The notes under the pieces were generated by a model that saw only the letters and a program-made list of their open reading frames with translations, did no database searches and was not told the origin of the DNA. From assembly GCA_964578605.1 (NCBI GenBank), contig CAZODO010000014.1:6102-70101 (forward strand): 64,000 bases of DNA. The letters are read 5' to 3'. A program made the position numbers and the translations under genes. Origin of the DNA: an uncultured Verrucomicrobiota bacterium (GTDB taxonomy: Bacteria; Verrucomicrobiota; Verrucomicrobiia; Limisphaerales; SIBE01). Below are positions 1 through 61,236 of this stretch, one piece after another. Numbering within the stretch: position 1 is the first letter of the stretch; each line of letters starts with the position of its first letter.

Positions 1-187
1 GGCTTCCAAAATAGCGTTCGATCTCGATCGTGCCGGCGTCGACCTCGGGGCTGGCGGTTGTGAGAACGTGCACGGCGGCGAAGCCCTCCGGGCCGGGTGG
101 CAGAAGGTGAAAAGCCTCCGGGACAACGGCCCAGGAGGTGCCCAGGGAGCACAGGAGGATAGGACGGTTGGGGGCGGAGGAGCCCAT
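1..187 (-). CDS. CARF-domain protein, N-terminal fragment running off the left edge (Cas_NE0113/Csx-like)
   Basis: My own minus-strand translation from the ATG at 185-187 gives [44 protein letters not shown]... The 'ILLxxLGTSxAVVPE' stretch resembles the first strand-loop of CARF/Rossmann-like CRISPR ancillary proteins. The ATG overlaps the TAA stop of the upstream Card1-like gene (TAATG). It is absent from the ORF track because it is truncated. Confidence 0.4.
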
Positions 188-1392
188 TATGGATTTGTGG
201 CTGAGGGCTGGGGGCGCGGCGTGAAGCGCGCCTGGAGGTCCGCGAGGTCGCTTAAGTTGGCCGGTTCGGTTGGAAAGAGGAGGGCCTGAAAGCCCGCGAC
301 AAGCTCGCGTTTTACGACAACAGCGATCCCGTTGAGGCGCGCGAACTGCAGGACTTCCCCGGGCAATTCGGCAGCGCGGGCGCAGACGACGCTTCCCAGG
401 AGACCTCCGGCCTCGCGGACGGCGAGAAGGTCTTCTTTCAGTGCTTTGATCTGCCCAATGGCGAGTTGGCTCTGGATCATGCCCAGGAGCTTGTCCGCCT
501 GCGGATGAAGGGGCGGTTTAAGCAGGCGGCGGAGGCTCGAAGCGAGGTCTTCGACCGGGCGCCGGTCTTTGCAGTCCACGAGCCAGAGCCGTCCGTCCCA
601 AACGAAGAGGAGGTCGATCTCGGCGTGAGGCGACCGTGTGCTCACCTGGTGGGACGACTTGACCTTCAGCCGCAGGCTGCGCTGCACCTGCTTGACGCCC
701 AAGGCAAGCAGCACCGCGGCAACGGTGAATTCAAGGCGGTCACCCTCTTTGTCCTCGCGGTCCGCTTCACCCGAGATCAGAAGCCAGGCACGCGGGTCCG
801 CGCCGTCCGTGAACGCCTCAAAACGACGCTGGCCAGCAGCGGTCCGGCCTGGATCGTTCAACGTCAGCTTCTGCCCGGGGCGCTCGACGACCGAGGCGTC
901 GAGTTGGCACCGCAGGAGTTCGACGGGATCGAGATCATCCGTGAGATGGCCGTCGACGCGTTCGAGCCGGGTCGTCATCTCGCCTTCGCGCGGTTCGAAC
1001 CAAGTGACCTGGTTGCGCCGCTCGAGATAGAACGTCCGGACACCGCGTTTGGCAGCCCATCGGAACGCGGCCATTGCCATCAGCTTGTTGCCGCCGGTGA
1101 AATTGAGGACGCACTCGGCGAGGGGGAGTTGGTGGGAGACCTGGATCTCGTCCAACCGGCGTTCGATGGCGGCGAAATCCGTGTCGGACACGGGTTCCAT
1201 GCGGGCGGTGCCGGGAGGGACAAGTCCGGAGGCGTCAAAGAAGCGCTTCACCCGCTGCGCGGGCCCCTTGGATTCCGCGGCGTCGTCACTGTGGAGCAGA
1301 AGGATCCGGCTGGGCTTGGGATTGAGGTGCGCCACCGCCAAGACCTGCGGCCAGATCTGGCGGGAGGCGAGGGAGAGAAGGGTTAGAGGCAT
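187..1392 (-). CDS. CARF + PD-(D/E)xK nuclease, Card1/Can2-like cyclic-oligoadenylate-activated effector
   Basis: 401-aa ORF. The N-terminus looks like a Rossmann-like CARF domain ([16 protein letters not shown]...ILLLHSDD). The C-terminus has a restriction-endonuclease-like motif ([21 protein letters not shown], i.e. D...DxK). It lies directly downstream of the cmr operon. Confidence 0.7.
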
Positions 1393-1606
1393 AGGCTGAG
1401 CGACGCGTCAAGGGCAATAGTTCCAGTATCGAGACCAGTCGAGCGAGACGAAGCTTTCGGGGTCGCATTTGGTGGGGCGCCTCCCCCGCAACCTGGCGAG
1501 GCTTGACTTCCGCCCAGCTACGCTGCCGCGGCGCCGCTCAGGGGAGGTTCGCGACCGACGGCTTGGCATGGACGGGGAACGAGGCATACGCATTAAGAAC
1601 ACGCGG

Positions 1607-2422
1607 TCAGAGCGCCTCCCAAGTCTCGGGCTTGCTTCGGTGCCCGCGGAGGAACCGACGCGCTTCTTCCAGAACGCGAGGATCCGATGCAAAGGCCAGC
1701 AAGCGCAGTTGCTTCTCGAGGCGCACCACCTTGAACTTCAGCGCCGAGGCCAGGCGGTCGCGGCCCCGGGCGTAACCAAACACCCAATCGGGACTCTTCA
1801 CCGTGTCGGTCGCCGCGGCACGCAACTTATCCAGTGTCGAACCCACTTCATTCCCCACGAGCATGACGGGCCAGCGGCAGCCGACTTCATCCAGTCGCGC
1901 TCTTAAGGCTTTGGCGGTCTGAGGCGCGGCCCCATTTGCCGGCCAGATGTTGCCTCCGCTCCGGTTGGCACGAAGACCGAGGGCTCCCAGCAGCAGCCAG
2001 GTTTCCAGAGCGTTCACGACTTTGCTTTCCAGTTCGGGCGGCAAAGAGCCGAAACGTGTGAGAATCTCGAGACGGAAACGAGCTCCAGGGGGAAAGGCCG
2101 CTTGGGGGCTTGCCGGGCCACCGTGCTTATGCGGGAGGGTGGGGATATTTGACGGACGCTGTGCTTGGAATCCCCTGATCCTGAAGACAAGCGGAGAAGC
2201 GGTGGCGACTCCTTGAACGCCCCCAAACGCATGTTTCTCCCAAACCCGAATGTTACGTAGGGCTTGCTCGTTCGCGCCGCCCGGCAGCTTCTGGTATTCC
2301 AAGGCCCGGAACCACCATCGAACCACTCCGCGAATGGAGGGTACGCGAAGCTCCGGAGTGTCTTGGTATGCGCCGCGATTGAAGAGCGGGGTGAGAATCT
2401 CGATGTCGCGTTCCCATTGCAT
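1607..2422 (-). CDS. cmr1: Type III-B RAMP protein Cmr1
   Basis: 271 aa. RAMP signature SIRGVVRWWFRAL near the N-terminus and a G-rich loop GALGLRANRSGG. Its start lies 3 nt after the cmr6 stop, and it is the last gene of the cmr2-3-4-5-6-1 string. Confidence 0.7.
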   Translation of the reverse strand: MQWERDIEILTPLFNRGAYQDTPELRVPSIRGVVRWWFRALEYQKLPGGANEQALRNIRVWEKHAFGGVQGVATASPLVFRIRGFQAQRPSNIPTLPHKHGGPASPQAAFPPGARFRLEILTRFGSLPPELESKVVNALETWLLLGALGLRANRSGGNIWPANGAAPQTAKALRARLDEVGCRWPVMLVGNEVGSTLDKLRAAATDTVKSPDWVFGYARGRDRLASALKFKVVRLEKQLRLLAFASDPRVLEEARRFLRGHRSKPETWEAL

Positions 2423-2425
2423 AGT

Positions 2426-3760
2426 TCAGGAGAGCTTAAGGCCGAGGCGGGCCAGAATTTGCTGGCCGGACGTTCCGGCGCGGCCGGATGTGAACGCCTG
2501 CCAGTACGGGCTGTTCTTCCGGAGTCGTTTCCGCTCGTTGGCTGGAACAAGCGATTCAAATGCCTGCCGGAGATTGGCATCGTCCAGCGCGGCCAAGCGG
2601 GGCAGTGCCCCGGGGAAGTTGTCTTTGTTGGCGAGGCTCTTGAACAAAGTGACAACTTCGGTCGCCGGGGTGGCGGCTGTCGTGCGAACGGCTTCCTTCC
2701 GAACCTCCGCTGTAGGCGACCCCACGGCCGTTCTCGATGGAACACGTCCGAGTTCGAACCATCCGTACCCGGCGGCCGTTTTTGCCCCGACGCCCCGACG
2801 AGTCACCGCATCTTCCAGCCAAAGGCGGGCTTGGCCAAGGAGTCCTTCTGAGGTGACATTTGGAACGTGGGGCGCCCTGTTGAGCAAGACGGCAAAACCA
2901 AAAGTTGAACCTGCTTCCACGGCAGGAAAATAGTTCGGCAGGGGACTCTCGGAATCCTCCGCGCGAGCCGCCCTCCCGCTGTAGTACTGTGGATAGTGGG
3001 GGTTAACCATATCTGCAGCAAGGGTTGGAAGCGTGGTGGGATAGGCCGGGAGGAAGCAGGCGCAGCCCTTGAATTCCTCGGCGCCAATTTCTCGGGCCGA
3101 ATTCCGGGCAGACGAAAGGCCGGCTGCCCACGCAAAGTCGCCGGTCACATCGTTCGCACCGTATCCAAACAAGAGCATGGCCGCCAGCAGTTGGCAGTCC
3201 TTCTCCGCTGCCGACGCTTCCTTGATTTCCCACAGGGCGTGCGCCCGAGTGATTCCCTTGACAGCGCTGCCGGGAATCAATGGCAGGCCAAAGCAGCGGT
3301 CGAGAGAAATACCAGCATTCTCAATGACGCCGCCCGCCAGGTTAATCATCACACGACCGCCCAACGTTGCCTCGAAAGTGGCGATCGAACCACCATAGGA
3401 GTGATTCAACTGCTGCAAAAACGATTGGGCGTTCTGGATGCATGCCGCCGAAAGCCGCGACTCCGGTGGAGCGGTGTTCGCCATCTTGTCGGCAATCTCC
3501 GCCTGGCGCAACTGCTTGTCGGCCTTCTCAGGGTTCGCGCTTCTTCTGGCGGAATCGCGCAGGCGCTGGGCATCCCGCCGCAGCAAGTCGGCACCGCGTG
3601 TGACAATCCGCAGAACGCTCCATCGGGCCGCGTCGTCCACTTTAGAGGGCTCACCCCATACTTTTGGCAGGCCAAACTTCTCGTGGAGGAGGGAGCGATT
3701 CTCCACGCCTTCCGCCCAGTTGCCGATCAACTCGGCAACATCCTTAGACATTGGAATCAT
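2426..3760 (-). CDS. cmr6: Type III-B RAMP protein Cmr6 with an unusual C-terminal extension
   Basis: N-terminal NRSLLHEKF block, then FGLPLIPGSAVKGITR and the G-rich loop GVGAKTAAGYGWFE. I chose the ATG at 3760 because it is preceded by GGAGGTGGAA. The longest ORF starts at ATG 3799, and ATG 3751 is another option. Confidence 0.8.
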   Translation of the reverse strand: MIPMSKDVAELIGNWAEGVENRSLLHEKFGLPKVWGEPSKVDDAARWSVLRIVTRGADLLRRDAQRLRDSARRSANPEKADKQLRQAEIADKMANTAPPESRLSAACIQNAQSFLQQLNHSYGGSIATFEATLGGRVMINLAGGVIENAGISLDRCFGLPLIPGSAVKGITRAHALWEIKEASAAEKDCQLLAAMLLFGYGANDVTGDFAWAAGLSSARNSAREIGAEEFKGCACFLPAYPTTLPTLAADMVNPHYPQYYSGRAARAEDSESPLPNYFPAVEAGSTFGFAVLLNRAPHVPNVTSEGLLGQARLWLEDAVTRRGVGAKTAAGYGWFELGRVPSRTAVGSPTAEVRKEAVRTTAATPATEVVTLFKSLANKDNFPGALPRLAALDDANLRQAFESLVPANERKRLRKNSPYWQAFTSGRAGTSGQQILARLGLKLS

Positions 3761-4139
3761 TTCCACCTCCCTCGGGAAGCTGTACGAAACGTCGGGCATA
3801 GCTCAGCCATGCGAGCGCCTCGCTCGTGGCGAGTTTGAGGACTTGGCTGTCGGCCTCCCTGGAGAGGAAGTCCAGCAGCTTGTCCAAGTCATCGGCCTTC
3901 TCGGGTGCGATCCCAATTTCCGGGTGAGCCAGGTGTCGCGCGATACTGTTGAAACAGGACCGCCAGCCGCTGTCTTGCTTTTGGGCGTAGGCGAATGCAC
4001 CCGCTGCCAGGAGCCCATTGCTCATGACGAGCGCCGGAAGCTTGCTCAGGACGTTGCCGCCTTGCTTGCCTCGCGTGTTCTCTCCCGCTCTGGCATAGGC
4101 GAGAGCGTTGGCCGCTCGGATCTGTTCAAGATTCTTCAT
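3744..4139 (-). CDS. cmr5: Type III-B small subunit Cmr5
   Basis: About 131-aa ORF between cmr4 and cmr6 (MKNLEQIRAANALAYA...LPALVMSNGLLAAGAFAYA). Size and position fit Cmr5. The ATG at 4139 lies 7 nt after the cmr4 stop. Confidence 0.7.
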   Translation of the reverse strand: MKNLEQIRAANALAYARAGENTRGKQGGNVLSKLPALVMSNGLLAAGAFAYAQKQDSGWRSCFNSIARHLAHPEIGIAPEKADDLDKLLDFLSREADSQVLKLATSEALAWLSYARRFVQLPEGGGNDSNV

Positions 4140-4146
4140 GTGCTTG

Positions 4147-5007
4147 TCATGCAAGTTTGACGGTGCAAAAACCAAGTCCGGTTGTTCCGTCCCCGCCGAA
4201 CTGCAGGAGCGGCCTTCTTAGGAAGAGATCGATGAGGAGGTCCAATTCGCCGTTCTCGCGGGCCAGAGTTGTCAGTGGGGCGAAGAACAGTGCTTCGGCG
4301 GGAACGGCTTCGAGGTTGAACAGAGCACTCGGCTTGACGGTTCCTTTCTGTGGATCAATCCCGACGTGTTGGCTGACTTCACAGGCCTGCTGGACGAAAT
4401 GGGCAAAATCACCGTTGCTCAGCAAAACAAATCGCCCTTTCGCGGCTTGCCAGACCTGGTCATCCAGAAGCTTCAGCAATTCCGTTTCCCAATTCCCTGG
4501 AAAGCGGCCCGTTTCGTCTGCGGTTCGGGAAAACTTATACTCTTCGAGCACCACCCCGGTCTTGCCGTTACGGGTAGTGGTCACAAGGTCACCGGCCAGG
4601 CAAGACATGTCACGCGGTTCATCGGGAACCTCGACATCCGCCAATCCACCATGATCCCGTTTCAATCGATCCAAAGCCAGAGGACATGTTGCCATCGCAA
4701 AGCTGCCTTTGGCCGAGCGGACGGGAAACGTCAGCAGCTTGCCTTCGCCGAACGACACTCTACCGGCGCTGAACTCCTTCGAGCCGCTACCGTAGCCTTC
4801 GCCAAAAATGTCATTGACGCGCGTCGTGGTCTTTGGGTCCCGAGTGGCTGCATCGCGTAGAACGCCTTTCAAGCTTGTTCCCGGAATCACCGGGAACCCG
4901 GTATGGCGCTCTCGGACGATGGGTTGGTCGATGGCGCCGACGCTGGCGCCGGCGCCCACGTGCAGGGGCGTTCGTGTGAACAGATAGAGGATTCTGGTTT
5001 GGTTCAT
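4147..5007 (-). CDS. cmr4: Type III-B backbone RAMP Cmr4
   Basis: 286 aa. LFTRTPLHVGAG...GAIDQPIVRE...FPVIPGTSLKGVLRD, with a C-terminal G-rich loop FGGDGTTGLGF. Confidence 0.85.
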   Translation of the reverse strand: MNQTRILYLFTRTPLHVGAGASVGAIDQPIVRERHTGFPVIPGTSLKGVLRDAATRDPKTTTRVNDIFGEGYGSGSKEFSAGRVSFGEGKLLTFPVRSAKGSFAMATCPLALDRLKRDHGGLADVEVPDEPRDMSCLAGDLVTTTRNGKTGVVLEEYKFSRTADETGRFPGNWETELLKLLDDQVWQAAKGRFVLLSNGDFAHFVQQACEVSQHVGIDPQKGTVKPSALFNLEAVPAEALFFAPLTTLARENGELDLLIDLFLRRPLLQFGGDGTTGLGFCTVKLA

Positions 5008-5030
5008 AGCTGGATTCTACTTGGGACGGG

Positions 5031-6518
5031 TTACAATCGCGGTTCGGCGGACGTCCTGTGACGTGCGGTGCCGGTTGGGTCGGAAGGTTCGATCAGGGGT
5101 TCGGACTGGCGGCAGAACTCCCATGTCCCGCAGACCCCCAGTCCAAAGCCTTTCTCCCCCATGAGGGTGCTGCGCCGGTTCTTGATCTCCGAACCCTCGC
5201 CTTCGCCGTGCCAGTTGAGGGCGTTCGCGAGGGCGTCTGCGGATGCCTCGCTCTCCGCTTCGAAATAGTAAACGGCACCGGCTGGCACAGCCAGGTGCGT
5301 GGATTTGGCGCCGCCTTGGGACCGATCGGTGTCATTGGGGAGCGCCCAACCGGTGACCACGAGGGGCTTCGGCACTAGCGCGGCCACCAACCGGGCGCCG
5401 ATGGCGGTCGTCCCTTCCTCGCTGTTGTAGCCCTTGCCGGAATAGTTCAGCGAGCGCCGCTCTTTTCTGACCGCCTCGGGGACGGTGCGCAACAAGACCG
5501 CGCCGGTTTCCGGGGAAATCCAGTTGGGCAGCCAGCCGCCAGGATGGCCGCGGACGGTGGTGCCGCGTGGCGAAACTCCGGGGCGAATCTCGGGCCACAG
5601 TGCGGGCGATAACAGGACCCATTTCACGAGCCAGCGGCGTCGCCCTTCAGAATCGGAAGTCGTGAATCCGCCGGTCAATCCTCGCGGGAGGGGCAAACCA
5701 TCGGTGGGCGCGTCTTCGCGAGTCGCGGTACACACGCGTTGCTGACCGCCCACGACAATTCGGGCCGGACGGCCGTCCAAGAGGTCGAGGATCAGGTCGT
5801 GCTTCGCGTGTTCCGGTGAAAGGCGTTTATCCTCCGCGCGGGCGACGAGGCCAAGTCGGAATCCCTCGCGCAACCGAAGGTAGTGGGCGGAGTAAATCTG
5901 GCCCTCGGCGCTTCCCCGGCCGGTGGTTTGGGTTTCGGGATCGATGGCGATGCCGATCTGGGCTTCGCGATCGGCGATCTGTTCGTCTTCCAGAAAATCC
6001 GTGACCCTGTCGAACGTATCCCCCCGAAGGTAGGCTTCATAGGCGTGGCGGCTGATCCAAGGCTCGCCCCCCGCGTTCTTGTCCGGCGCCTGCGTGTTGG
6101 CGACCGCGTAGAGAAGGGGAAGGGGAAGGGAACTGTCCTTTCTCCAGTTCCCGGTCGCGGGCTGGAGTGTTACGCATACCGATCCAAGAGTCTGCGCGTC
6201 TTTTGGGCGGGGGAAGAACCATTTGTTTTCAGGACTGAGAGATCCGTTCGACGACAAGACCCGCACAGGGAACGGGCCGACGGTGGCAAGCGCACCGAAC
6301 TTGCGGTCTCGGTGATCGTCCTGATAATGGCCGCTGCGTCCTCGCCGGTGAGAATGGGCTTCTGCGGCAAAACCCGCGCGCCAAAGCGCTGCGTGCAAGG
6401 CGTGGCTGGTGACGTCCGGGAGAGGCCAGGCGGCACTGTGCCCGGCGAGCGAGCCGGACATGGGGCGCCCGTCGCGGAAGAAGAGCACGTCAGTGGGTTG
6501 CAGATAGATCAAGTGCAT
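5031..6518 (-). CDS. cmr3: Type III-B Cmr3
   Basis: 495 aa. N-terminal LQPTDVLFFRDGRPM and C-terminal GEKGFGLGVCG. Its start lies 2 nt after the cas10 stop. Confidence 0.75.
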   Translation of the reverse strand: MHLIYLQPTDVLFFRDGRPMSGSLAGHSAAWPLPDVTSHALHAALWRAGFAAEAHSHRRGRSGHYQDDHRDRKFGALATVGPFPVRVLSSNGSLSPENKWFFPRPKDAQTLGSVCVTLQPATGNWRKDSSLPLPLLYAVANTQAPDKNAGGEPWISRHAYEAYLRGDTFDRVTDFLEDEQIADREAQIGIAIDPETQTTGRGSAEGQIYSAHYLRLREGFRLGLVARAEDKRLSPEHAKHDLILDLLDGRPARIVVGGQQRVCTATREDAPTDGLPLPRGLTGGFTTSDSEGRRRWLVKWVLLSPALWPEIRPGVSPRGTTVRGHPGGWLPNWISPETGAVLLRTVPEAVRKERRSLNYSGKGYNSEEGTTAIGARLVAALVPKPLVVTGWALPNDTDRSQGGAKSTHLAVPAGAVYYFEAESEASADALANALNWHGEGEGSEIKNRRSTLMGEKGFGLGVCGTWEFCRQSEPLIEPSDPTGTARHRTSAEPRL

Positions 6519-6520
6519 GG

Positions 6521-9500
6521 CTAGGCCGGTGAGGTTGGTTTGGCGAAAGGCTCGGATGGGATCGGTGTGGAAGGCGGTACTTCGCCAGGCTGGGAGCGGT
6601 TTCTGTCAACAAAGGCCGCCGTTTGGCAAAGCCCGATCAGCGCCCGGAGCGGTGCATCGACGGGCAGTCGTTCCAACCGCCGTTGGGCGTGAGGGGCAAG
6701 GCGAGCCCAGCCGCCTCGCTCGGCTTTCGCTTGATCCAGGGCGCCTTGGGCACCTCGACGGACGGTCTCCAGATAGCCCACGAGCGGCGATGTGTCCCCC
6801 GTGGGAGGTTCCGTCATGGACGCCAATCCCGTCCCGGCATTCCCGGGGTGTCCTTGCCCTTGCCGCTCCAGGGCATGGCGGATTTCACGGAGGGCAATGT
6901 CAACGACTGGGAATCCGTCAACCGCGGCGAGACTCTCGCCAGAGAGCGCGCTGGTCTCGGTCAGGTAAGGTTGAAGCAACTCGATGACCCGGTGGGGAAA
7001 TCTGCCGCTGACCTCGCCCGATCCCATGGCCTGCATGATCGCGTCGTAGACTTCCAGACCTCCAGAATCCCATTGGCACCCCCATTCGATGATTTCGCCG
7101 GAGCGTTTCATCAAGGTGACCGCCACGGCGCGCCGCCCCAATTGGTTCTTGGCCCGTTTCTCGGCCGATTGGGCCGCCCGCACCACGTCCTGCAGCGGCG
7201 ATTTGAAATGGGCGATCGCGATCCCCACAGAGCAATCGGCGGCCGGGCCGGGGACGAGGAAGGGAATTGGACGCCCGCGCTGGTCCTTCCCCTCGGGCGA
7301 GACCAGGAAGCCCGGTCCTTGGTTTTGGAAAAGAGTTTCACCGCCAGGGCCTGCCACGGGGCGGCCCTGGAAGGCGGTGCGCAGAGCGCTCGCGCATTTC
7401 AGGGCCGCTTCCGCGGGAACGAAGGCGAGGACGTCGTCGCCCCCCGCGTAAACCAGGCGGCCCTGGAAAGCTTCGATGATCGGCCGGGCGCAGCGCAGGG
7501 CGAAATTGCTGAGCGCCTCGCTAAACTGCAGGTGGTAGCTCGGTGAGACAAGGCGGCGCGTGCCCAACAAGCCCTTGAAGCGGGCTTGAAGCATGCCGTG
7601 CCCATCCGGATCGCTCGCCCGGCGAAAATACTCCAGGGCCCCTTGAGGCTGCGACTCTGTGCTGTCCAGGTAGGCGGCAAACTGGGTTTCGTAAAAGGGC
7701 GTCCTGTCTCCGGAGATCCATCGGCCGATCTGATCACCGTCAAGCGCCATGACGGCAAAGTACTTACCGCCAGGTGTGTCATCGTCCGTGGTTTCCAGGC
7801 TATCCTCTGAATCGTTTGCGAAGGGCTGACTCGCGGCAATGGCGCGGGTGTTGGGCATAGGGAATTGGCTCCGATTCGCTTTGAGGCGCCATTTCTCGTG
7901 GAGCCAAGACCAATGCCAAACACGTTTGACCAGGGTGATGGCTCCCACTTCATCGTCGTGCTTGAAAAGCCTCCCCCATTCGGAATCCAGCTTTGAAACT
8001 CTTTCGACGAAGCCTGAGCCGCCAAAGAGCATCTCCTCGCGGCCGGTCAGCGCGTCTTTGTTTTGCGCCACACCTGGCTCGTGCTGGTCCCCGTGGTCCC
8101 AGGCGGGAAACTTGCGAGTTTGGCGCACACTGTCCAGTTCCCACGACGCAAGCGCAGCGGCCAGTGCCCAGGCCAGGCCGCGATTGTTGAGCTGATCCCT
8201 CGGGCCCCCCTCGCCGTCGACGTAGTAGCGGGGATCTCGATGGTCGATGGGCATCGCCCCAGTTGCCGCGGCTTTGACCATGTCGAATCGTTGCAGCAGG
8301 TCTGGTTCAGTCTTGGAGTCGCCCGCGGCAGCCTGGGGTTCTGACCCACTCCGGTCAGGCTCAAGCCGAGGAAGTTGTTTTGCCAGCGTGCGCGCCTGTT
8401 CCAGCGTTTCTGGCCACGCGAAACTGTGCCAGGACATATCGAGGAGCCGGCGGGTGTGTGCGTGGAATCGGTCCTCGGCCGCTTTGCGATTCAGTGCGGG
8501 CGGGAGGAACTCAAGCAGGCCTCCATCTGCGACCTTATCCCAGACGGACCGGCAGATGGCGCGCCATTCCGCTTGGATGGCGTCGGAGACGATGGCGCCG
8601 AGTTCGGCCGCGCGTGGCGCGGGCACGACAGCGAAGAAGACGTTCGGTAAACTCGGCGTGAGCAGATCCATGTCGGAATTCCCGCCCCCTTGGCTCCGGC
8701 GGGTTGACCAGGCGTTTCCATGGATGAATTCCCACACCGGTTGGCTGCCAATTCGCACTTTGCTCCAAAGTTCGTCCCGCCAGAGCAGATCGAAGAGGGG
8801 TTGCCCACGGAGGTTGGGAAAAATCACGGTGTCCGGCCCAACCTCCTCCGCCAGGCGCTTGATGCCGGCGGCCATGAGCCACGACAGGAGATAGCTGCCG
8901 CTCCAGAGGTCCCGAGTGCTGCGGGCCTGGGCAATGAATTCCTGAACTGGGCCGAGCTGGAATTTGAGAAAAGCCGGTCGCAGAGGGGCTTGGCGCAATG
9001 CACGGCTCAACGCCTCAGGAGAATCGAAGTCGGCCGCGCCCTCCACGAGGGCGGTCCCGGCGAGGGCAGATACGACGGCGTTGTGATTCCAGATTGTATG
9101 ATCCGGAAGGCGCGTATCGGCGGGGAGGAACGCGAAACGCGCGTCGTACTCCTCCGCAAAACCGGGCCAGAGCCGCCAATGGGCAAAGAAGCGCGCTCTC
9201 CAGAGTTGGGCTTCGTCCCAATCTTCGGGCCACTGACGCAAGACAGGCTGAACACAGGCGTCAGTCCCTTCCAGAGCGTCATAGCCCGTAACTTCGTCCC
9301 CTGGCCCAAACCTCAGGACAGCGTCTTTCGTTTCGGTCCTGTCGGGGCCCATGGGGTGATGGAACCCGGCTCGGACCCCGTCAAACGCGCAGGTCAATCC
9401 CGCGCTCCGCGACGCTGGAAACGGGAACCGGTCCGCGCTGGAGGCGGTGATGTCCGCCTGCTTGCTGAACGCCCGGAGTTCCTCGTCCGTAAAGCCGGCT

Positions 9501-9613
9501 GCTCGCATCGCTGATTCGGAGCGCAGTTCGTGGGTTCGAATATCCGCGCACTTGCTCGGTGGATCATGGAGATAGGCCAGAAGTTTTCTTTTCCAGAAGG
9601 TGGCGTTGTTCAT
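6521..9613 (-). CDS. cas10: Cas10/Cmr2 large subunit (HD-like N-terminus plus cyclase palm)
   Basis: 1030 aa. N-terminal KLLAYLHDPPSK (HD dipeptide where Cmr2 proteins carry it). Palm motifs MALDGDQIG and YAGGDDVLAFVP (GGDD). Confidence 0.85.
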   Translation of the reverse strand: MNNATFWKRKLLAYLHDPPSKCADIRTHELRSESAMRAAGFTDEELRAFSKQADITASSADRFPFPASRSAGLTCAFDGVRAGFHHPMGPDRTETKDAVLRFGPGDEVTGYDALEGTDACVQPVLRQWPEDWDEAQLWRARFFAHWRLWPGFAEEYDARFAFLPADTRLPDHTIWNHNAVVSALAGTALVEGAADFDSPEALSRALRQAPLRPAFLKFQLGPVQEFIAQARSTRDLWSGSYLLSWLMAAGIKRLAEEVGPDTVIFPNLRGQPLFDLLWRDELWSKVRIGSQPVWEFIHGNAWSTRRSQGGGNSDMDLLTPSLPNVFFAVVPAPRAAELGAIVSDAIQAEWRAICRSVWDKVADGGLLEFLPPALNRKAAEDRFHAHTRRLLDMSWHSFAWPETLEQARTLAKQLPRLEPDRSGSEPQAAAGDSKTEPDLLQRFDMVKAAATGAMPIDHRDPRYYVDGEGGPRDQLNNRGLAWALAAALASWELDSVRQTRKFPAWDHGDQHEPGVAQNKDALTGREEMLFGGSGFVERVSKLDSEWGRLFKHDDEVGAITLVKRVWHWSWLHEKWRLKANRSQFPMPNTRAIAASQPFANDSEDSLETTDDDTPGGKYFAVMALDGDQIGRWISGDRTPFYETQFAAYLDSTESQPQGALEYFRRASDPDGHGMLQARFKGLLGTRRLVSPSYHLQFSEALSNFALRCARPIIEAFQGRLVYAGGDDVLAFVPAEAALKCASALRTAFQGRPVAGPGGETLFQNQGPGFLVSPEGKDQRGRPIPFLVPGPAADCSVGIAIAHFKSPLQDVVRAAQSAEKRAKNQLGRRAVAVTLMKRSGEIIEWGCQWDSGGLEVYDAIMQAMGSGEVSGRFPHRVIELLQPYLTETSALSGESLAAVDGFPVVDIALREIRHALERQGQGHPGNAGTGLASMTEPPTGDTSPLVGYLETVRRGAQGALDQAKAERGGWARLAPHAQRRLERLPVDAPLRALIGLCQTAAFVDRNRSQPGEVPPSTPIPSEPFAKPTSPA

Positions 9614-15235: not shown

Positions 15236-15466
15236 TCATGCTTCGTCGGCGGATTTGGCCGGCATCTCACGTCCGCGCAGCTTCATCAATTCGTCAAATT
15301 CCATAAAGGTGCTAGAACCTCCCAGGCGGCTGGCGAGGTTGCGCAGCTTGGCGCGGCGGTTTAAATCCTCCAGTGCCCGAATGACTGCTTCCCGCTTCGT
15401 CCTCGCGCCGGAGACGCGCATGGCTCCGGCGAGCAAGGGTTCAGGAATATCGAGCGTCATTTTCAT
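15236..15466 (-). CDS. VapB-type (DUF2191-like, ribbon-helix-helix) antitoxin-like protein with no adjacent toxin
   Basis: 76 aa. MKMTLDIPEPLLAGAMRVSGARTKREAVIRALEDL matches the typical 'TLDIdddLl.eAm...g..tKreaV..AL' N-terminus of this antitoxin family. Confidence 0.6.
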   Translation of the reverse strand: MKMTLDIPEPLLAGAMRVSGARTKREAVIRALEDLNRRAKLRNLASRLGGSSTFMEFDELMKLRGREMPAKSADEA

Positions 15467-15563
15467 CCATCCATTCTCGAAGAATTAGACATCAACCGCA
15501 ATCAAACTCGCTGCATATTCGACGGCCAACGTATGCAAGCGAAAACCGACCTCCTTTCGATGT

Positions 15564-15651
15564 AAACACAATCGATACACAATCGATACACAATAACGAT
15601 TGTGTTTCCATAGTGTTAGCAATGCGTATCTGATGCGTTTAAATCGAATGG
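15564..15651. repeat. Phased 11-bp tandem array A (about 7-8 units, forward then inverted)
   Basis: In strict 11-bp register: aaacacaatcg / atacacaatcg / atacacaataa / cgattgtgttt / ccatagtgtta / gcaatgcgtat / ctgatgcgttt. Dyad at acacaat-aacg-attgtgt. Confidence 0.8.
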
Positions 15652-15836
15652 AGCGCCTGACCGCTGCGGAACAACCACGCCTAAACATTTGCGGGTTGAT
15701 TGATTCGGAACTCGGAGTTCTTTCGGCGCCTTAGGTCTTCGGTCTTCGGGCTTTCCCGCGCCTCTCTTCCCTCACGGGATCGCCGGCTGTTCACCGTGGT
15801 TGGAACCAACGGTGAGAGAAGACCTTTATGCAGAGG

Positions 15837-21810: not shown

Positions 21811-22003
21811 CACGTGTTTCCTGGTTTAGTTACCGCAATCCGCGGGCCTTTGCAATCCAGACGGGGTGTTCGTTCGTACGCACATCCAATGCGACCCACA
21901 AGGCAATTCAGGGAGGCAACGGCGGCAAAACGCTCAGGGCGAGGGTTGCTCAGCGGCCGCATGGCGCCATTGACATTGAACCATCATCAATCATAATTCG
22001 GCC

Positions 22004-22552
22004 ATGAGATTCATTGCGCTACTGATGGGCAGCCTTTGCTTGATGCAAATGGCGATGGCAAGCGCTTCCTCGCTGTACGAGATCCCCCTGAAAGATATCG
22101 ATGGCAAAGCAACGTCGTTGAAAGCGCATGAAGGCCAAGTGCTACTGCTGGTGAACGTGGCTTCCAAATGTGGTTACACGCCGCAGTACAAAGGCCTGGA
22201 GAGTCTGCACCTGCAGTTCAAAGACCGAGGCTTTACGGTGCTCGGTTTTCCGTGCAACGATTTCGGAGCGCAGGAACCGGGCAGTAACGACGAAATCAAA
22301 AGCTTCTGCTCGGCCAATTATGGCGTGACCTTCCCGCTTTTTGACAAGGTGCATGTGAAGGGACCAGATCAGCACCCGCTTTTCGCCGCGTTAACAGGGG
22401 ACGAATCGCCGCTCCCGGGAGAAATCAAATGGAATTTCTCGAAATTCCTGATCGGGCGAGACGGCAAGCTCGTTCGTCGATTTGAGTCGAAGGTGGCTCC
22501 GGATTCTCCCGAACTCGTCCAGGCGATCAAAGCGGCCTTGGAAAAGAAGTAA
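22004..22552 (+). CDS. gpx: Glutathione peroxidase (Cys-type), secreted
   Basis: VNVASKCGYTPQY, GFPCNDFGAQEPG and KWNFSKFL. N-terminal signal-like segment. Confidence 0.9.
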   Translation: MRFIALLMGSLCLMQMAMASASSLYEIPLKDIDGKATSLKAHEGQVLLLVNVASKCGYTPQYKGLESLHLQFKDRGFTVLGFPCNDFGAQEPGSNDEIKSFCSANYGVTFPLFDKVHVKGPDQHPLFAALTGDESPLPGEIKWNFSKFLIGRDGKLVRRFESKVAPDSPELVQAIKAALEKK

Positions 22553-31504: not shown

Positions 31505-31583
31505 CCTGGCTCTTTGCTTTGAGCAGGGTAACACCAAACCGCTGGTCAAGCCACGAGGCTGCCAGTTGACGCCGCATAGACTA

Positions 31584-31704
31584 TAAACGCACGCTAAACG
31601 CACGCTAAACGCACGATAAACGCACGATAAACGCACGATAAACGCACGATAAACGCATGTATACATGAGTTTACCATGTGTTTAACATGAGTATGACATG
31701 TGTA
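31584..31704. repeat. Phased 11-bp tandem array B (11 units, 121 bp)
   Basis: taaacgcacgc x2, taaacgcacga x4, taaacgcatgt, atacatgagtt, taccatgtgtt, taacatgagta, tgacatgtgta, all in 11-bp register. Lies 80 bp upstream of the DUF4112 ATG. Confidence 0.95.
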
Positions 31705-31909
31705 ATTATTGGATGGCTGGCGGATGCGGTTCAGCAAAACCTCGGATCGGCCTTAAGCCCTTTCCCAACCGGCCGCCCTCGCGCGCAACTATCCAGGCGG
31801 CAAAACCGGGCATGGGATGGGTTCGCCAACGGATCGCCAATTATCCCCGGCCGTTGAACACGGTGAAAACCTACGGGGCGGATGGCGGCTGGTTCTCTGC
31901 GGTCGCGGC

Positions 31910-44836: not shown

Positions 44837-45817
44837 TCACCTCCCTGCCATCCGGCGCGCTTTTAGCTCCTTCCAGGTTGTCAGGATGATGCCTTTTTCC
44901 TCGATGGCGCGTTTCACCCTCGGATCGGTCAGGGCTTTAAGATCTTCGCCCCTGGCCGCACTCGAGCCCGTGACGAGGGGGAATTCATCCGTCGGCTTCG
45001 AAGCATGGAAGATAATCTCGGTTACGCCTGGCTTGAGTTCGTCGAACAAGGCGATTAAGCGTTCGACTTTGTCGCCGCGATGCCCGGTGAATTCGGTATA
45101 AAGATCGTCCAGGACTGGCAGGCCGGCGTTCCAGACCCGCTCCGCCCATGCCTCGAGCAGCGCGGCCAGTTGGCGTTCCTCGATCGAAAGGTGCGCGGCT
45201 TTGGGGCTCACGATCAGGATGGGTAGGTTCTTCTCCATTCCGAGCTTCGCGTAACGCTCGAAGAAGTCCGGGCGGGCGAACAAAGTCCCCATGTGCGAGT
45301 CGAGGTGGGTGATGGGGATGTTCAAACGCTCGGCGCGTTCAACTTGGGCGCGCATCTCACGCTCGATCTCGTCGGCGGAAGCCGACCGCGCGACTTGTTG
45401 GACGGACGGCCACAGGCAACCTTCGGCATCCACGAGGCCGGGCACTTGCGATTTGCCTGCCAGGGGTGCCCAGCGGTAGCGCTTCCACTCGGACGTCAGC
45501 GTCAGGTGCACCCCGGCGTCCAATTCCGAATGCGCCTGGAGATGATGCGCCATTTCGGGCACCCACGGACAGGGCATCATGAGGCTAAACGACGTCCCCA
45601 CGCCGTTCGCGGTCGCTTCAATGGCACCCAAATTGGACGAATGCGACATCCCGGCATCGTCAATGTGAAGGATGACCACCACGTCGGCCGGTTTCCATCC
45701 CAGTCGTTCGGCGTAGGTCTGGCTCATGACGTTTTGCGCTCCCAGGCTCGCCACCAGGAGCGCCAGGAGAAGTCCAGATTTGAGACACGCGCCGCGCCAA
45801 ATGGCTATCGATTGCAT
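44837..45817 (-). CDS. YdjC/ChbG-family carbohydrate deacetylase, secreted
   Basis: VVILHIDDAGMSHSSN and THLDSHMG. Start set to ATG 45817, which gives a signal peptide (MQSIAIWRGACLKSGLLLALLVASLGAQ). Confidence 0.7.
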   Translation of the reverse strand: MQSIAIWRGACLKSGLLLALLVASLGAQNVMSQTYAERLGWKPADVVVILHIDDAGMSHSSNLGAIEATANGVGTSFSLMMPCPWVPEMAHHLQAHSELDAGVHLTLTSEWKRYRWAPLAGKSQVPGLVDAEGCLWPSVQQVARSASADEIEREMRAQVERAERLNIPITHLDSHMGTLFARPDFFERYAKLGMEKNLPILIVSPKAAHLSIEERQLAALLEAWAERVWNAGLPVLDDLYTEFTGHRGDKVERLIALFDELKPGVTEIIFHASKPTDEFPLVTGSSAARGEDLKALTDPRVKRAIEEKGIILTTWKELKARRMAGR

Positions 45818-45908
45818 ATGGCCGATTAGACCAGGAAAGACCGGCGTCCGGAAGCAGATTCCCGTGAATCGACGCGCTCTCCCACTCTTCTGCTCCGCCG
45901 CTCCTCCC

Positions 45909-46029
45909 GGTCTTAACACGGTCTTGACACGGTCGTCACCCGGTGATCACCCGGTGATCACCCGATCACGAACGGGTGATCTACGGGTGAACTACGGGTG
46001 AACTACGGGTGAACTACGGGTGAACCCCG
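45909..46029. repeat. Phased 11-bp tandem array C (11 units, 121 bp)
   Basis: ggtcttaacac / ggtcttgacac / ggtcgtcaccc / ggtgatcaccc x2 / gatcacgaacg / ggtgatctacg / ggtgaactacg x3 / ggtgaaccccg. The unit ggtgatcacc is itself a 10-bp palindrome. Confidence 0.95.
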
Positions 46030-46130
46030 TGAGGACCTGGAAAGGAGATCGGCAGCGGCGGTGTGCCAATCGATAACCGGGTGGGGGTCGCGTATCGCCC
46101 GCGTATTGGGGAGGACCACTGCAAGAATCG

Positions 46131-46463
46131 TTAAGGTTTAAGAAGGCAGCAACCCGTTCCGGGATTTCGCGCTGTTTCCGTCGAATTTGCCCAGGCAAAG
46201 GCAGCCTTAAAGCATTCGCGGCCTTGAATATAGCCTGAAACACTATCCACTAACTCGGAGAGGGGCTGTTCCAGAGCGGCGCCCAGGCAGGTCAGGCATC
46301 TTGGCGCGCCGCCCGCTCCCAAGGCGATGCTGGCCAGGACCTGGTGGGCACAGAGGGGTGTCCGGCATGAATGGCATACGGCGGCTTTGGCAGCTTCCAA
46401 GCGCCGGATGAGCGCCAGCGTGTCAGCGGACATGGATTCGGCGCCTGGATCTGACGGTTTCAT
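46131..46463 (-). CDS. Small Cys-rich protein of unknown function, translationally coupled to the LysR gene
   Basis: 110 aa. CHSCRTPLCAH...PRCLTCLG...RECF...GCC. Its ATG overlaps the LysR TGA (ATGA). Confidence 0.5.
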   Translation of the reverse strand: MKPSDPGAESMSADTLALIRRLEAAKAAVCHSCRTPLCAHQVLASIALGAGGAPRCLTCLGAALEQPLSELVDSVSGYIQGRECFKAAFAWANSTETARNPGTGCCLLKP

Positions 46464-47386
46464 CCGGCAAGAATGCTCTTGGCCTGCGACGTGATTGCGA
46501 GCACGGCCGGATGCGCCAGCTTCCGTTCGGCGCTGATGGCGTAAAACTGCTCCCGACAATCCTCTGTGCAGCCGATGACCTCGAATCCATACCGGTTCAC
46601 AGCTTCGGTGGCGACGAGGCTGGGCATGGCCACAACTCCCAGGCCATCCGTGGCGGCCATATTCGTGAAGGCGGCGTCTTCAAACTCAGCCACGACCCGA
46701 GGCCGGATCTTTTCGTTGCGAAACCAATTCTCCAGGGAGCGGCGCAGGGCGTTATTGGCGGTGGGAAGCAGAGATGGCGCGCCGTTTAGACACGCGGGAA
46801 AATCGCCCGCCAGTGTTTTAGCCAAGGACGGGGCAGCGCAGAACGAAAGACCGCACTCGCCGAGCAGGTGGTTAAACGCGTTGACCGAGCTGGGGGCTGG
46901 TTCGTCGGCCAGCACGAGGTCAAGCCGGAATGAAGTGAGCTGTGAAACCAAGTCTGGCGATTTCCCTTCGCGGCAGACAGGCAGGACCAAGTGAGGGGGA
47001 TGGAAAACAGGCTTCAAAACTCTGTAAGCCAATAACTTCGGAAATGAATCGGCGATGCCGATTTGCAGATGAACGGGCCGGCGGCTGGGATGCTGGCGCT
47101 CGCCATCCAGCAATTCCTGGCCGAGTGAGAAGATTTCCTCTGCATAGCTAAACGCGCGATGCCCGGCCTCCGTCAGGACCAGGCCGCGTCCGCTCCGATG
47201 AAAGAGCACCGCACCCAGAGCCTGTTCCAGGTTTTGAACCTGGGCGCTAATGGTGGATTGCGAGACATGCAGGGCCCGGGCCGCTTGCTGGATGCTTCCT
47301 TGGCGCGCGACTTCCCAGAAATAACGCAGATGATGATAATTGAGGAAAGTCACAACAGACACTATTCGGTTTAAGCGAATTGACAA
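46460..47386 (-). CDS. LysR-family transcriptional regulator (NhaR-like N-terminus)
   Basis: LNYHHLRYFWEVARQGSIQQAARALHVSQSTISAQV (wHTH). The start is uncertain (TTG 47386 or GTG 47353). Confidence 0.85.
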   Translation of the reverse strand: MSIRLNRIVSVVTFLNYHHLRYFWEVARQGSIQQAARALHVSQSTISAQVQNLEQALGAVLFHRSGRGLVLTEAGHRAFSYAEEIFSLGQELLDGERQHPSRRPVHLQIGIADSFPKLLAYRVLKPVFHPPHLVLPVCREGKSPDLVSQLTSFRLDLVLADEPAPSSVNAFNHLLGECGLSFCAAPSLAKTLAGDFPACLNGAPSLLPTANNALRRSLENWFRNEKIRPRVVAEFEDAAFTNMAATDGLGVVAMPSLVATEAVNRYGFEVIGCTEDCREQFYAISAERKLAHPAVLAITSQAKSILAG

Positions 47387-59624: not shown

Positions 59625-60992
59625 ATGAAACAGTGCCCCCTCCTTCTTCTTGCGCTAATGCCTCTTGCCCTCTGGGCTGCCGAACCGTGCCAGGTCAACG
59701 TTGTCGATGAAGAGAACGGCTGGCCGGTGCCCCTGATCGAGCTCCGAACCACCCATCAAATGCGCTCCATCACCGACAATGCCGGCATCATCGCTCTCGA
59801 CGCTCCCGAGTTGATGAATCGCGAAACCTGGTTCGACATCGTCGGGCACGGATACGGGGTGCGCCCGGACGGGTTTGGCATGCGCGGCGTCCGGATCACG
59901 CCCACCCCCGGGGGAACGGTGACGGTGAAGGTCAAGCGCGAGATCATCGCGAAACGCCTGGGACGCCTTACCGGCGCCGGGTTGTTCGCGGAAAGCCAAA
60001 AGCTCGGGAAAGACCTGGATTGGCCGGAGTCCGGCGTGTTCGGCTGCGACAGCGTTCAGAACGCGGTGCATCGAGGCAAACTCTTCTGGGCCTGGGGCGA
60101 TACGACCATGCCGCAGTACCCGCTGGGCATCTTTCACATGACCAGCGCCACCACGGCCATCCAGCCTCTCACCTCGTTCGAGCCTCCTGTCCGGTTGAAG
60201 TTCGAATACTACCGCGATGCCAAAGGGGCGCCGCGCGGCGTGGCCGTCATGCCCGGAAGCGGCCCAACCTGGGTCAGTGCGTATGTAAGTTTGCCGGACA
60301 AGACAGGTTCCCCACGCCTGGTTGGCACTTACGTCAAGATCAAGCCGCCTATGGAGGCTTACGAGACCGGCCTCTGCGTCTGGAACGACGCCACCTCAAG
60401 CTTCGAACAGCACCGAGTCCTTTGGACCAAGAGCGACCAGGCACCCAAACAACCCCCGGCTCCAGACGGCCATCCCGCCTTCTGGAAGGATGCGGATGGC
60501 AAGGAATGGGTGCTCTTTGGCAACCCCTTGCCGAACCTCCGCTGCCCGCCCACGTTCGAAGCTTGGTCCGATCCGGCCAAGTGGGAAATCCTCCGCCCAC
60601 AGGAAACCCTCGCGTCGGCGGAAAATGGCGCGCCGGTCAAGCCGCATACCGGTTCGATCGCCTGGAACCCGTTCCGCAAGCGCTGGGTCACCGTCTTCAT
60701 GGAAGTGTTCGGGAAGCCGTCCCCTTTCGGCGAGCTTTGGTATGCCGAGTCCGCGGTTCCCACCGGTCTGTGGGGGAAGGCGGTCAAAGTTGTCACGCAC
60801 CAGAATTACACGTTTTACAACCCGCGTTTGCATCCTGAATTCACCGAAGCGAACTCGCCCATCCTGATCTTCGAAGCCACCTACACGGCGACCTTTGCGG
60901 ATCGGCCGCATCCCACACCCCGATACGATTACAACCAGGTGCTATACCGGTTGGATCTGAACGACCCGGCGCTGGCCGGGGCGCAGAACTAA
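59625..60992 (+). CDS. Secreted hypothetical protein (N-terminal beta-sandwich-like region plus a large C-terminal domain)
   Basis: Signal peptide MKQCPLLLLALMPLALWAA. No family assigned from sequence alone. Confidence 0.5.
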   Translation: MKQCPLLLLALMPLALWAAEPCQVNVVDEENGWPVPLIELRTTHQMRSITDNAGIIALDAPELMNRETWFDIVGHGYGVRPDGFGMRGVRITPTPGGTVTVKVKREIIAKRLGRLTGAGLFAESQKLGKDLDWPESGVFGCDSVQNAVHRGKLFWAWGDTTMPQYPLGIFHMTSATTAIQPLTSFEPPVRLKFEYYRDAKGAPRGVAVMPGSGPTWVSAYVSLPDKTGSPRLVGTYVKIKPPMEAYETGLCVWNDATSSFEQHRVLWTKSDQAPKQPPAPDGHPAFWKDADGKEWVLFGNPLPNLRCPPTFEAWSDPAKWEILRPQETLASAENGAPVKPHTGSIAWNPFRKRWVTVFMEVFGKPSPFGELWYAESAVPTGLWGKAVKVVTHQNYTFYNPRLHPEFTEANSPILIFEATYTATFADRPHPTPRYDYNQVLYRLDLNDPALAGAQN

Positions 60993-61029
60993 ACCCGGGA
61001 ACAGAACAAACGCGGGCCAGGATTCAGTC

Positions 61030-61150
61030 TAAACGCACGCTAAACGCACGCTAAACACATGCTAAATACACGATATACACATGATAAACGCATGAAAACA
61101 TGAGTTTGTCATGTGTGTAACATGTGTTTATCGTGCGTTTCTATCGAATA
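61030..61150. repeat. Phased 11-bp tandem array D (11 units, 121 bp), same family as array B
   Basis: taaacgcacgc x2 / taaacacatgc / taaatacacga / tatacacatga / taaacgcatga / aaacatgagtt / tgtcatgtgtg / taacatgtgtt / tatcgtgcgtt / tctatcgaata. The first 27 nt are identical to the start of array B. Confidence 0.9.
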
Positions 61151-61236
61151 CGATGCCTTGCCGCCCCCTGTTCTCTTCCGGTCTTCCTTGCACCCGGCGC
61201 TTGATCACGCCTCGCCCCGAACGCATTTTCCATCTC

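Follow-up and report, generated by a model that had tools for sequence, protein, structure and literature searches.

Dyad-symmetric arrays of 11-bp units, a dispersed intergenic element of a Limisphaerales-type bacterium: anatomy, relatives and a putative protein-docking role

One turn of B-DNA comprises 11 bp. The parC site of R1 consists of two blocks, each with five 11-bp iterons to which the ribbon-helix-helix protein ParR binds; the DNA is wrapped on the protein scaffold and the promoter region is spanned. Iterons of parC have the same direction and flank the par promoter, and the site occurs once per plasmid, adjoining parMR. Cyanobacterial STRR sequences are composed of heptamers, without helical phasing or dyad, and are confined to heterocystous cyanobacteria. 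Ends of MITE and foldback elements are arrays of transposase-binding repeats (Tn7 and Mu ends; FB, Ac/Ds and En/Spm in eukaryotes). In Streptomyces, PhoP binds cooperatively to up to 6–8 tandem 11-nt units of the type G(G/T)TCAYYYR(G/C)G; binding is lost when the unit has 10 nt (PMC2275107). The tandem repeats recognized by CarH, nnnnTnnACAn, are likewise 11 bp long and are occupied from one DNA face (PMC9304148). REP units are hairpins of 20–40 nt with a GTAG or CGTC tag (PMC3733652).

The whole stretch of DNA analysed here (the window, 64 kb) is an ordinary part of the chromosome of a Limisphaerales-type Verrucomicrobiota bacterium that lives in wastewater sludge. It encodes a type III-B Cmr module, class II ribonucleotide reductase, der, glycoside hydrolases, nuoA-D, panC and nadB. 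Direct reading of positions 45909–46029 gives eleven contiguous 11-bp units, 121 bp in length (array C). The units listed for this region in the initial annotation match the sequence exactly, and its view of the array as built around GGTGATCACC-type palindromic units is borne out. The period-11 enrichment that it set as a condition is present. Self-identity of array C at lag 11 is 90/110 (0.82), with 0.10–0.28 at the other lags from 5 to 16; the background, taken from 121-bp windows over the whole window, is 0.26 ± 0.055, and no lag-11 value above 0.49 arises when 64 kb are simulated 100 times with a first-order Markov model. Tandem Repeats Finder gives period 11 at 45906–45968 and 45972–46025, the distal block with 97% matches. 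Among lags 5–24, 55-bp windows with an identity of 0.7 or more are found in the entire 64 kb at lag 11 (and its double, 22) alone. Strong lag-11 regions are exactly four: 15552–15631, 31548–31729, 45874–46065 and 61000–61143.

Array C is composed of two arms and a centre. The ydjC-proximal arm, 45909–45963, has five units: ggtcttaacac, ggtcttgacac, ggtcgtcaccc and ggtgatcaccc, the last one twice. On the plus strand, from the outside to the centre, the array opens with TAACAC and TGACAC units and then switches to TCACCC; this arm is matched by the arm profile described below with E = 1e-4. The dyad centre, 45964–45981, is a perfect 6-6-6 inverted repeat, GATCAC-GAACGG-GTGATC; a dyad search places the centre at about 45968.5. 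The distal arm, 45975–46029, contains ggtgatctacg, three copies of ggtgaactacg, and ggtgaaccccg, and reads (CGTAGTTCACC)n on the minus strand. Arms at 45917–45964 and 45984–46031 are 71% complementary.

Directly downstream of array C is a ydjC/chbG-like deacetylase gene (44837–45817, minus strand; Pfam YdjC, 4e-55), the exact 326-aa product of which is present in the protein collection. The A of its ATG is at 45817 on the minus strand, as annotated before; the gap to the array is 91 nt (45818–45908). This spacer, read on the minus strand, carries a -10-like TCTAAT (45830–45825) and a weak putative -35, TTCCGG (45853–45848). The block GGTCTTTCCTGGT(C/G)TAATCGGC of the ydjC leader is kept in the loci L094 and L097. 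TCTAAT, itself conserved in two relatives, lies 7 nt before the ydjC ATG, a position which suggests a leaderless transcript. A canonical TTGACA-16-CATAAT occurs 7 nt before the ATG of a peroxidase gene at 22004, so that promoters of leaderless type would exist in this DNA; the putative promoter of the methyltransferase gene beside array D is TTGATC-17-CATTTT. No sigma-70-type promoter is detected near array C by a consensus scan of 45700–46500, and no intrinsic terminator by a scan around the array. On the other side, a small Cys-rich ORF of 111 aa (46131–46465, minus strand) ends 101 nt from the array. It has 81% nucleotide identity and in-frame conservation in a related genome, and its start overlaps the stop of a LysR gene (46460–47386). 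The LysR gene was considered as a general cognate regulator and rejected, as the other arrays have no LysR neighbour.

Four GATC sites are present in array C, two of them in the 6-6-6 centre. Their number was given correctly by the initial annotation; the first two positions were off by one, and the true starts are 45945, 45956, 45964 and 45978. Four sites inside 37 bp, two of them spaced 11 bp, and five in the orthologous array of a close relative (L097) are what would recommend the proposal that the array is a Dam-methylation-sensitive switch for ydjC. The proposal is nevertheless considered highly improbable. Equally dense clusters, with four GATC in 40 bp, lie at three other places of the window (5939, 23096 and 48548, in addition to 45945), and the 429 sites of the window correspond to an observed/expected ratio of 1.03. 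The cluster is not conserved: GATC is absent from the array C version of a third strain (L098) and from the sister arrays A, B and D. Genes for DNA methyltransferases are lacking in the 64-kb window; the methyltransferase adjoining array D belongs to the generic class I SAM enzymes. The GATC sites of array C follow simply from the unit sequence.

The three sister arrays have the same anatomy. Array A, 15551–15653, has arms of ACACAATCGAT-type units and a terminal motif at both ends (CTCCTTTCGATG...CGAATGGAG). Array B, 31583–31710, consists of seven to eight (A/C)TAAACGCACG units, the centre CATGTATACATG (31656–31667) and four CATGTGTTTA-type units. Array D, 61029–61149, consists of six TAAACRCAYG units, the centre CATGAAAACATG and four inverted units. 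In all four, two opposed blocks of direct 11-bp repeats are arranged about a dyad, with an arm length of 42–48 nt and an arm complementarity of 70–81%, a range that holds for A, B and D as well as for the set of four. The head-to-head polarity that the initial annotation ascribed to A, B and D in common with C is confirmed and extends further: dyad symmetry with identical inward polarity is found in 11/11 lineage arrays, and in these both arms, read from the outside to the centre, give units of the (T/A)AAC-N-CA type. Arrays D and B are 75% identical over 136 nt with the centre included, which indicates copies of one element rather than independent expansions. The period is exactly 11 in all arrays examined (four in the window, seven in about 118 kb of the relative, twelve from Cytophaga, one from a phage), and other periods are essentially absent where arrays were examined.

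All four window arrays are located between co-directional genes. Upstream of its gene in every case, array A is 84 nt away from a VapB-like small ORF (15236–15466, minus strand), with der next; array B, 78 nt from the start of a DUF4112 gene (31504, minus strand); array C, 91 nt from ydjC; array D, 87 nt from a SAM methyltransferase gene. For the last gene, ATG 61237 is taken as the start, since it corresponds to a 341-aa call in the relative; the start annotated at 61153, for a product of 369 aa, abuts the array. The products of these downstream genes are functionally unrelated. Distances from array to start in the relative are 75, about 88, about 108 and about 120 nt; one array is 227 nt away from the nearest start. 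On their other side, the window arrays are separated from the stop of the preceding gene by 37 to 207 nt. At loci whose sequence allows a promoter to be guessed, the array would end about 50–55 nt upstream of the putative -35.

In RNA folding, each strand of arrays A, C and D forms a long hairpin (z-scores -4 to -6.5). Array B differs, folding no better than its shuffles on the plus strand (z about 0) and with z -3.1 on the minus strand. A-form RNA has 11 bp per turn. Strong folds of A, C and D, the weaker one of B, the location of the window arrays between co-directional genes and that of one orthologue between convergent genes are compatible with an element acting at the RNA level, in which a transcribed hairpin would end or stabilise the upstream transcript in the manner of REP, or would structure the 5' leader of the downstream gene. 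Such a role is judged unlikely. Three loci are situated in divergent spacers where no gene ends, U-tract terminators and an Rfam family are lacking, the arms expand independently, and the predicted promoters lie downstream of the arrays. Each unit has one wobble and one mismatch on either strand, hence no strand preference, which also speaks against a function in RNA.

The copy number of the arrays was assessed from a relative and from metagenomic depth. The relative is a closed 9.9-Mb MAG, GCA_054814625.1, with proteins in the same 90%-identity clusters as those of the window. Seven period-11 arrays occur in about 118 kb of it, approximately one per 17 kb, with other periods almost nil; extrapolated, this gives several hundred arrays per genome and agrees with the depth ratios. 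Contig word depth in run X1 is about 3000 over GGTGAACTACG (C) units and about 660 over TAAACGCACG (B) units, compared with 3.5–10 on the array flanks. In the same run, 154 (C) and 64 (B) sludge contigs pile up on the arrays and run into many different G + C-rich flanks. No arrays are found in 590 kb around ydjC homologues of 80 other genomes, nor in 21 kb of a species with an 86% identical YdjC. Array C is regarded as one copy of a lineage-specific intergenic element family with several hundred copies per genome.

Counterparts of all four window arrays are present in the relative and differ by whole units. The comparison of copy number among strains that had been proposed earlier gives, for array C, 11 units in the window and 9 in the relative (L097, 9703–9826), where (CGTAGATCACC)x3 takes the place of (CGTAGTTCACC)x3 plus one CGTAGATCACC. 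In the orthologue of array B (L100, 9824–9929) the distal four-unit block is kept, the proximal one is made up of five heterogeneous units as against eight near-identical ones in the window, and the upstream neighbour gene is different. The orthologue of array D (L103, 6809–6904) lies about 88 nt from the methyltransferase start. The orthologue of array A (L104, 13747–13807) is still 3' of the GH36 gene, but between convergent genes. Arrays B and C keep the downstream gene and the proximal leader even though the distal flank or upstream neighbour is replaced. Nucleotide identity between the window and the relative is 73–87% for arrays (somewhat inflated, as any unit can align with any other), 81–90% for flanking genes, 65–81% for proximal leaders and 41–57% for distal spacers, which are not alignable. 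Unique spacers around the arrays are 41–68% identical; the identity of the arrays exceeds that of the unique spacers only, not that of the genes. Presence of arrays is also variable. At the der locus an array is present in the window and absent from the relative, and another strain has an array of a different type (CTATATGNTTN); in the kinase-peroxidase spacer an array is present in the relative and absent from the window. At both loci the spacer around the missing array is replaced as well.

Arms of independent loci (n = 18), oriented from the outside to the centre, were aligned with no internal gaps. The consensus is ..ctccaT.CGgT.TaAAC.CA.gctA.AC.CA.g.tAaAC.CA....AAAC.CA.g. The information of the alignment sits on A-C-N-C-A every 11 nt, and spacer columns have about 0 bits. 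Conservation of the core alone is a pattern that neutral decay of a repeat would not give. The core occurs once per unit, as TCACCCG in array C and as TAAAC-N-CA in the other form; three to four spacer bases and the number of units drift between copies. The apparent unit types TAAACGCACG, ACACAATCGAT and TCACCCGGTGA / TTCACCCGTAG belong to one superfamily. The terminal motif CTCCATYCGRTNTAAAC, close to a C-type unit (TCACCCGGTGA), is located at the outer ends of arms in inverted orientation and is seen again in the loose ends of sludge contigs. A profile HMM of the arms detects an array on which it was not trained (L105, 15220–15335) and has no match in 590 kb of other PVC genomes.

Identical units occur outside the lineage. 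An exact search for two C units gives 12 loci in one leaf-litter metagenome, of 33–41% G + C, each one an intergenic tandem array with 4–14 copies of the C-unit 11-mer (GGTGAACTACG). GyrA from the leaf-litter contigs shares 95% identity with the GyrA of an uncultured Cytophaga (Bacteroidota). The Cytophaga arrays include CATACCCGGAA-type variants and have one direction only, without an inverted arm; two are located between convergent ORFs, and orthologous pairs among the contigs differ in copy number. A search of viral contigs for two B units gives one low-G + C phage contig with gAACGCACG ATAAACGCACG ATAAACGCACG followed by inverted GTGTGTTTA. The phage copy is flanked by a 10-bp direct repeat, AAGGAGCAGA, and an ORF has its end cut off there. 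No empty site for this copy was found, the relative used diverging downstream. A viral scan for the C unit gave nothing, and among phage and plasmid records BLAST found no counterpart of arrays B and C, possibly due to low-complexity masking.

Dispersal of this kind agrees with a selfish or neutral repeat of the REPIN or MITE/foldback type with no role for the neighbouring gene. In that version an imperfect palindrome (ssDNA hairpin) would be copied by a cognate transposase or RAYT-like enzyme, and the 11-bp units would be subterminal binding sites of the copying enzyme, or a by-product. The high copy number with many different flanks, one array per approximately 17 kb in the relative, strictly intergenic location, long hairpins on both strands (except in B), a common terminal motif in inverted orientation, homology of B and D along the whole length and the differing presence in close relatives are all as expected of such a repeat. 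Occurrence in unrelated phyla and in a phage suggests horizontal spread, and the phage copy is set between 10-bp direct repeats, with the end of an ORF cut off. This version is rather unlikely all the same. At none of the 11 arrays is target-site duplication above chance when compared with random positions; part of the 10-bp repeat around D is also found in the relative; no clean empty site is found; and no transposase or Y1 enzyme occurs near the arrays. The link to IS630-like transposases in L105 was rejected, their ends not being in common with the array. Arms change length independently (four and eight units in B), so that the hairpin is not maintained, and the Cytophaga copies lack the inverted arm. 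The exact 11-bp period and the conservation of the 5-bp core alone are left unexplained.

With REP, BIME and REPIN sequences the arrays have in common hundreds of copies, extragenic position, imperfect palindromes of about 100 bp, lineage specificity and lack of target-site duplications. They differ from REP and REPIN in their non-palindromic tandem 11-mers and independently varying arms, in the restriction of GTAG to C units, and no gene for a RAYT (Y1 transposase) is seen in the 64-kb window and about 118 kb of the relative. MITE and foldback elements are alike in inverted blocks of short tandem repeats, a conserved tip (CTCCATYCGRTNTAAAC here) and small size, and unlike in that no target-site duplication, autonomous partner or clean empty site is found for the arrays. 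STRR sequences are alike in short tandem units, intergenic scatter, a unit common to several genera and lack of a known function. A CRISPR array is excluded by contiguous units without unique spacers; parS, DnaA boxes, LexA boxes and SeqA sites were dropped as candidates for mismatch of motif or architecture.

The period, size and symmetry of the arrays also allow a DNA-structural element without a dedicated sequence-specific protein: anisotropically bendable or curved DNA, phased at 11 bp about a dyad, that would favour a right-handed wrap, a plectoneme apex (e.g., a strong gyrase site) or an extruded cruciform upstream of promoters. Periodic sequences of this sort are favoured by gyrase and other proteins that wrap DNA. 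The period slightly exceeds the helical repeat of 10.5 bp, the element has 100–130 bp and two-fold symmetry, each unit has one TA step beside a G + C-rich half, several different unit sequences are tolerated, and the B unit TAAACGCACG is present in the Widom 601 nucleosome-positioning sequence. Conservation of a specific A-C-N-C-A core goes beyond base composition, identical 11-mers in distant phyla are hard to obtain by convergence, and arms of 70–80% complementarity are poor formers of cruciforms; a purely structural element is accordingly given a low probability. The structural and RNA-level readings are assigned a lower weight than either protein docking or a selfish repeat.

The preferred interpretation, for which the chance is put a little short of even, is that of a helically phased, two-fold symmetric platform for protein docking upstream of promoters, carried in a family of dispersed repeats in which slippage would add or remove whole units. 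An exact 11-bp period, inward polarity, one 5-bp core per turn and a position mostly 75–125 nt upstream of start codons give the arrays the likeness of a helically phased docking array. One DNA-binding subunit per helical turn would bind cooperatively on one DNA face. The platform would usually lie 75–125 bp upstream of the start codon and about 50 bp upstream of a guessable -35; from this position upstream of the putative promoter it would be an upstream operator, an activator site or an architectural element. Whole units would be gained or lost through slipped-strand or unequal recombination, by which the helical phase would be retained. Binding of a protein, the identity of that protein and any effect on transcription are putative throughout; anatomy, copy number, orthology with whole-unit changes, position-specific conservation and presence of the same units in other phyla are direct observations.

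Counted in favour of docking are the exact period, gap-free conservation of the core, symmetry in 11/11 arrays, the position, the comparison with the relative, the occurrence in other taxa and the precedent of PhoP and CarH. Counted against it: no candidate binding-protein gene is encoded adjoining the arrays; the neighbour genes are unrelated, unlike those of a regulon; a single genome contains three or more unit variants; presence differs between close relatives (der, kinase-peroxidase spacer); the L104 orthologue lies between convergent genes and one array 227 nt from a start; the Cytophaga arrays are unidirectional, two of them between convergent ORFs; the identity of orthologous arrays is inflated; and the scan near array C gives no sigma-70-type site. 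Protein docking and a selfish repeat are compatible, as a dispersed element may consist of the sites of its own partner protein.

By analogy, the arrays would work most like tandem 11-bp operator or iteron arrays. Operators of winged-helix regulators of the PhoP, OmpR-PhoB and CarH type are alike in exact 11-bp contiguous direct repeats, a short core with free spacer, and well-conserved 'core' units accompanied by degenerate 'extension' units near promoters; one protein per turn on one face is established for them and proposed here. The C unit GTTCACCCGTA fits 9/11 positions of the PhoP consensus, whereas A, B and D units do not; many A, B and D units contain TnnACA, as in the CarH repeats. 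Operators of the PhoP/CarH type have 2–8 units in one direction, at or over the -35, and a defined regulon. In the present arrays 8–12 units are divided between two opposed blocks, with the putative -35 about 50 bp further downstream; hundreds of copies occur, at unrelated genes and with strain-variable copy number. No response-regulator gene is present within the window, and a Pho regulon or PHO box as such is ruled out by gene context and position. The parC site is alike in that about five 11-bp units follow one another directly in each of its two blocks, and unlike the arrays in that these are chromosomal, at about 1 copy per 17 kb and four in 64 kb, with no par genes nearby.

Rfam search of the window and five loci yields two tRNAs only. 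No description of such elements is found in the literature on the unit sequences, 11-bp interspersed repeats or Verrucomicrobia and Cytophaga repeats; exact-sequence matches in the literature are to the Widom 601 sequence only. The arrays are interspersed extragenic repeats outside every named family and are apparently undescribed. A wider proposal, advanced tentatively and with limited expectation, is a new class of interspersed element: helically phased, dyad-symmetric 11-bp arrays in several hundred copies per genome, docking or wrapping a putative oligomerising DNA-binding protein, exchanged or common among Verrucomicrobiota, Cytophagaceae and phages, and tuning promoters or local chromosome structure by whole-unit copy number.

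As contigs end inside the arrays, these are a marker that breaks short-read assemblies. They provide defined bait DNA for finding a partner protein, e.g., (TAAACGCACGA)6 and (GGTGAACTACG)6, and a natural system for the evolution of cooperative protein arrays via repeat slippage. The same 11-mers in Bacteroidota and a phage would mean either that a DNA-binding specificity is widely conserved or that the element has spread horizontally. If the proposal is true, approximately one in fifteen intergenic regions of a 10-Mb environmental bacterium would carry a helix-pitch modular element of variable copy number, and the genome would possess a layer of promoter-proximal architecture without described counterpart.

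In the third strain, the region upstream of ydjC (L098 1-500) holds an opposite-strand tRNA gene. The array upstream of ydjC in this strain is a shorter version free of GATC sites, and the contig terminates within it. Short-read assemblies generally break at 11-bp arrays, as they also do at loci L101 and L102. Near array C in the window, a conserved Cys-rich ORF of 111 aa (46131-46465, minus strand; CHSCRTPLCAH...CLTCL) overlaps the LysR stop with its start and is without a Pfam match. The Cytophaga contigs from a leaf-litter metagenome (L081-L092), in which the 11-mer of array C also forms arrays, have several further dispersed repeats of about 60-200 bp in common, some of them in tandem (e.g. 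L081 2840-3495). A conserved flank of about 150 bp abuts the array at three different loci of these contigs.

The unit of arrays B and D, TAAACGCACG (31584-31593 and other positions), is contained within the Widom 601 nucleosome-positioning sequence, which explains every exact literature match. The match is probably a coincidence. The methyltransferase beside array D is deposited as a protein of 369 aa with its start at 61153, 4 nt past the array. Its extra N-terminus is probably spurious, because the call in the relative (closed MAG GCA_054814625.1) is 341 aa and equivalent to ATG 61237. Array D, with about 60 nt of palindromic flank per side, is flanked by a 10-bp direct repeat, ACCCGGCGCT (60964-60973 and 61192-61201). 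This repeat is no clear evidence of insertion, since it is present in part in the relative.

Between der and array A lies an ORF of 76 aa (15236-15466, minus strand; MKMTLDIPEPLLAGAMRVSGARTKREAV...) that resembles VapB-type antitoxins. It is the sole member of its own 90% cluster, has no evident toxin partner, and is without a counterpart at the der locus of the relative. In two relatives, roughly 230 nt of conserved sequence lie 5' of der (L099 9550-9900; L101 80-300) and terminate in a terminator-like hairpin, AGAGGCGGC...GCCGCCTCTTTCT. This sequence may represent a leader or a small RNA.

On the minus strand, 187-9613 encodes the effector module of a type III-B CRISPR-Cas system, composed of Cmr2/Cas10, Cmr3, Cmr5, multiple RAMP proteins and one protein with a CARF domain. 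No CRISPR-like array was reported by Tandem Repeats Finder across the entire window.

A predicted canonical promoter, TTGACA-16-CATAAT (21970-22006), precedes the glutathione-peroxidase-like gene and is kept in the relative (L100 19530-19580). Hexamer-to-ATG spacing is the same at ydjC and the methyltransferase gene, but the hexamers are weaker. The promoter of the glutathione-peroxidase-like gene ends only 7 nt 5' of the ATG, a distance that implies a leaderless mRNA.
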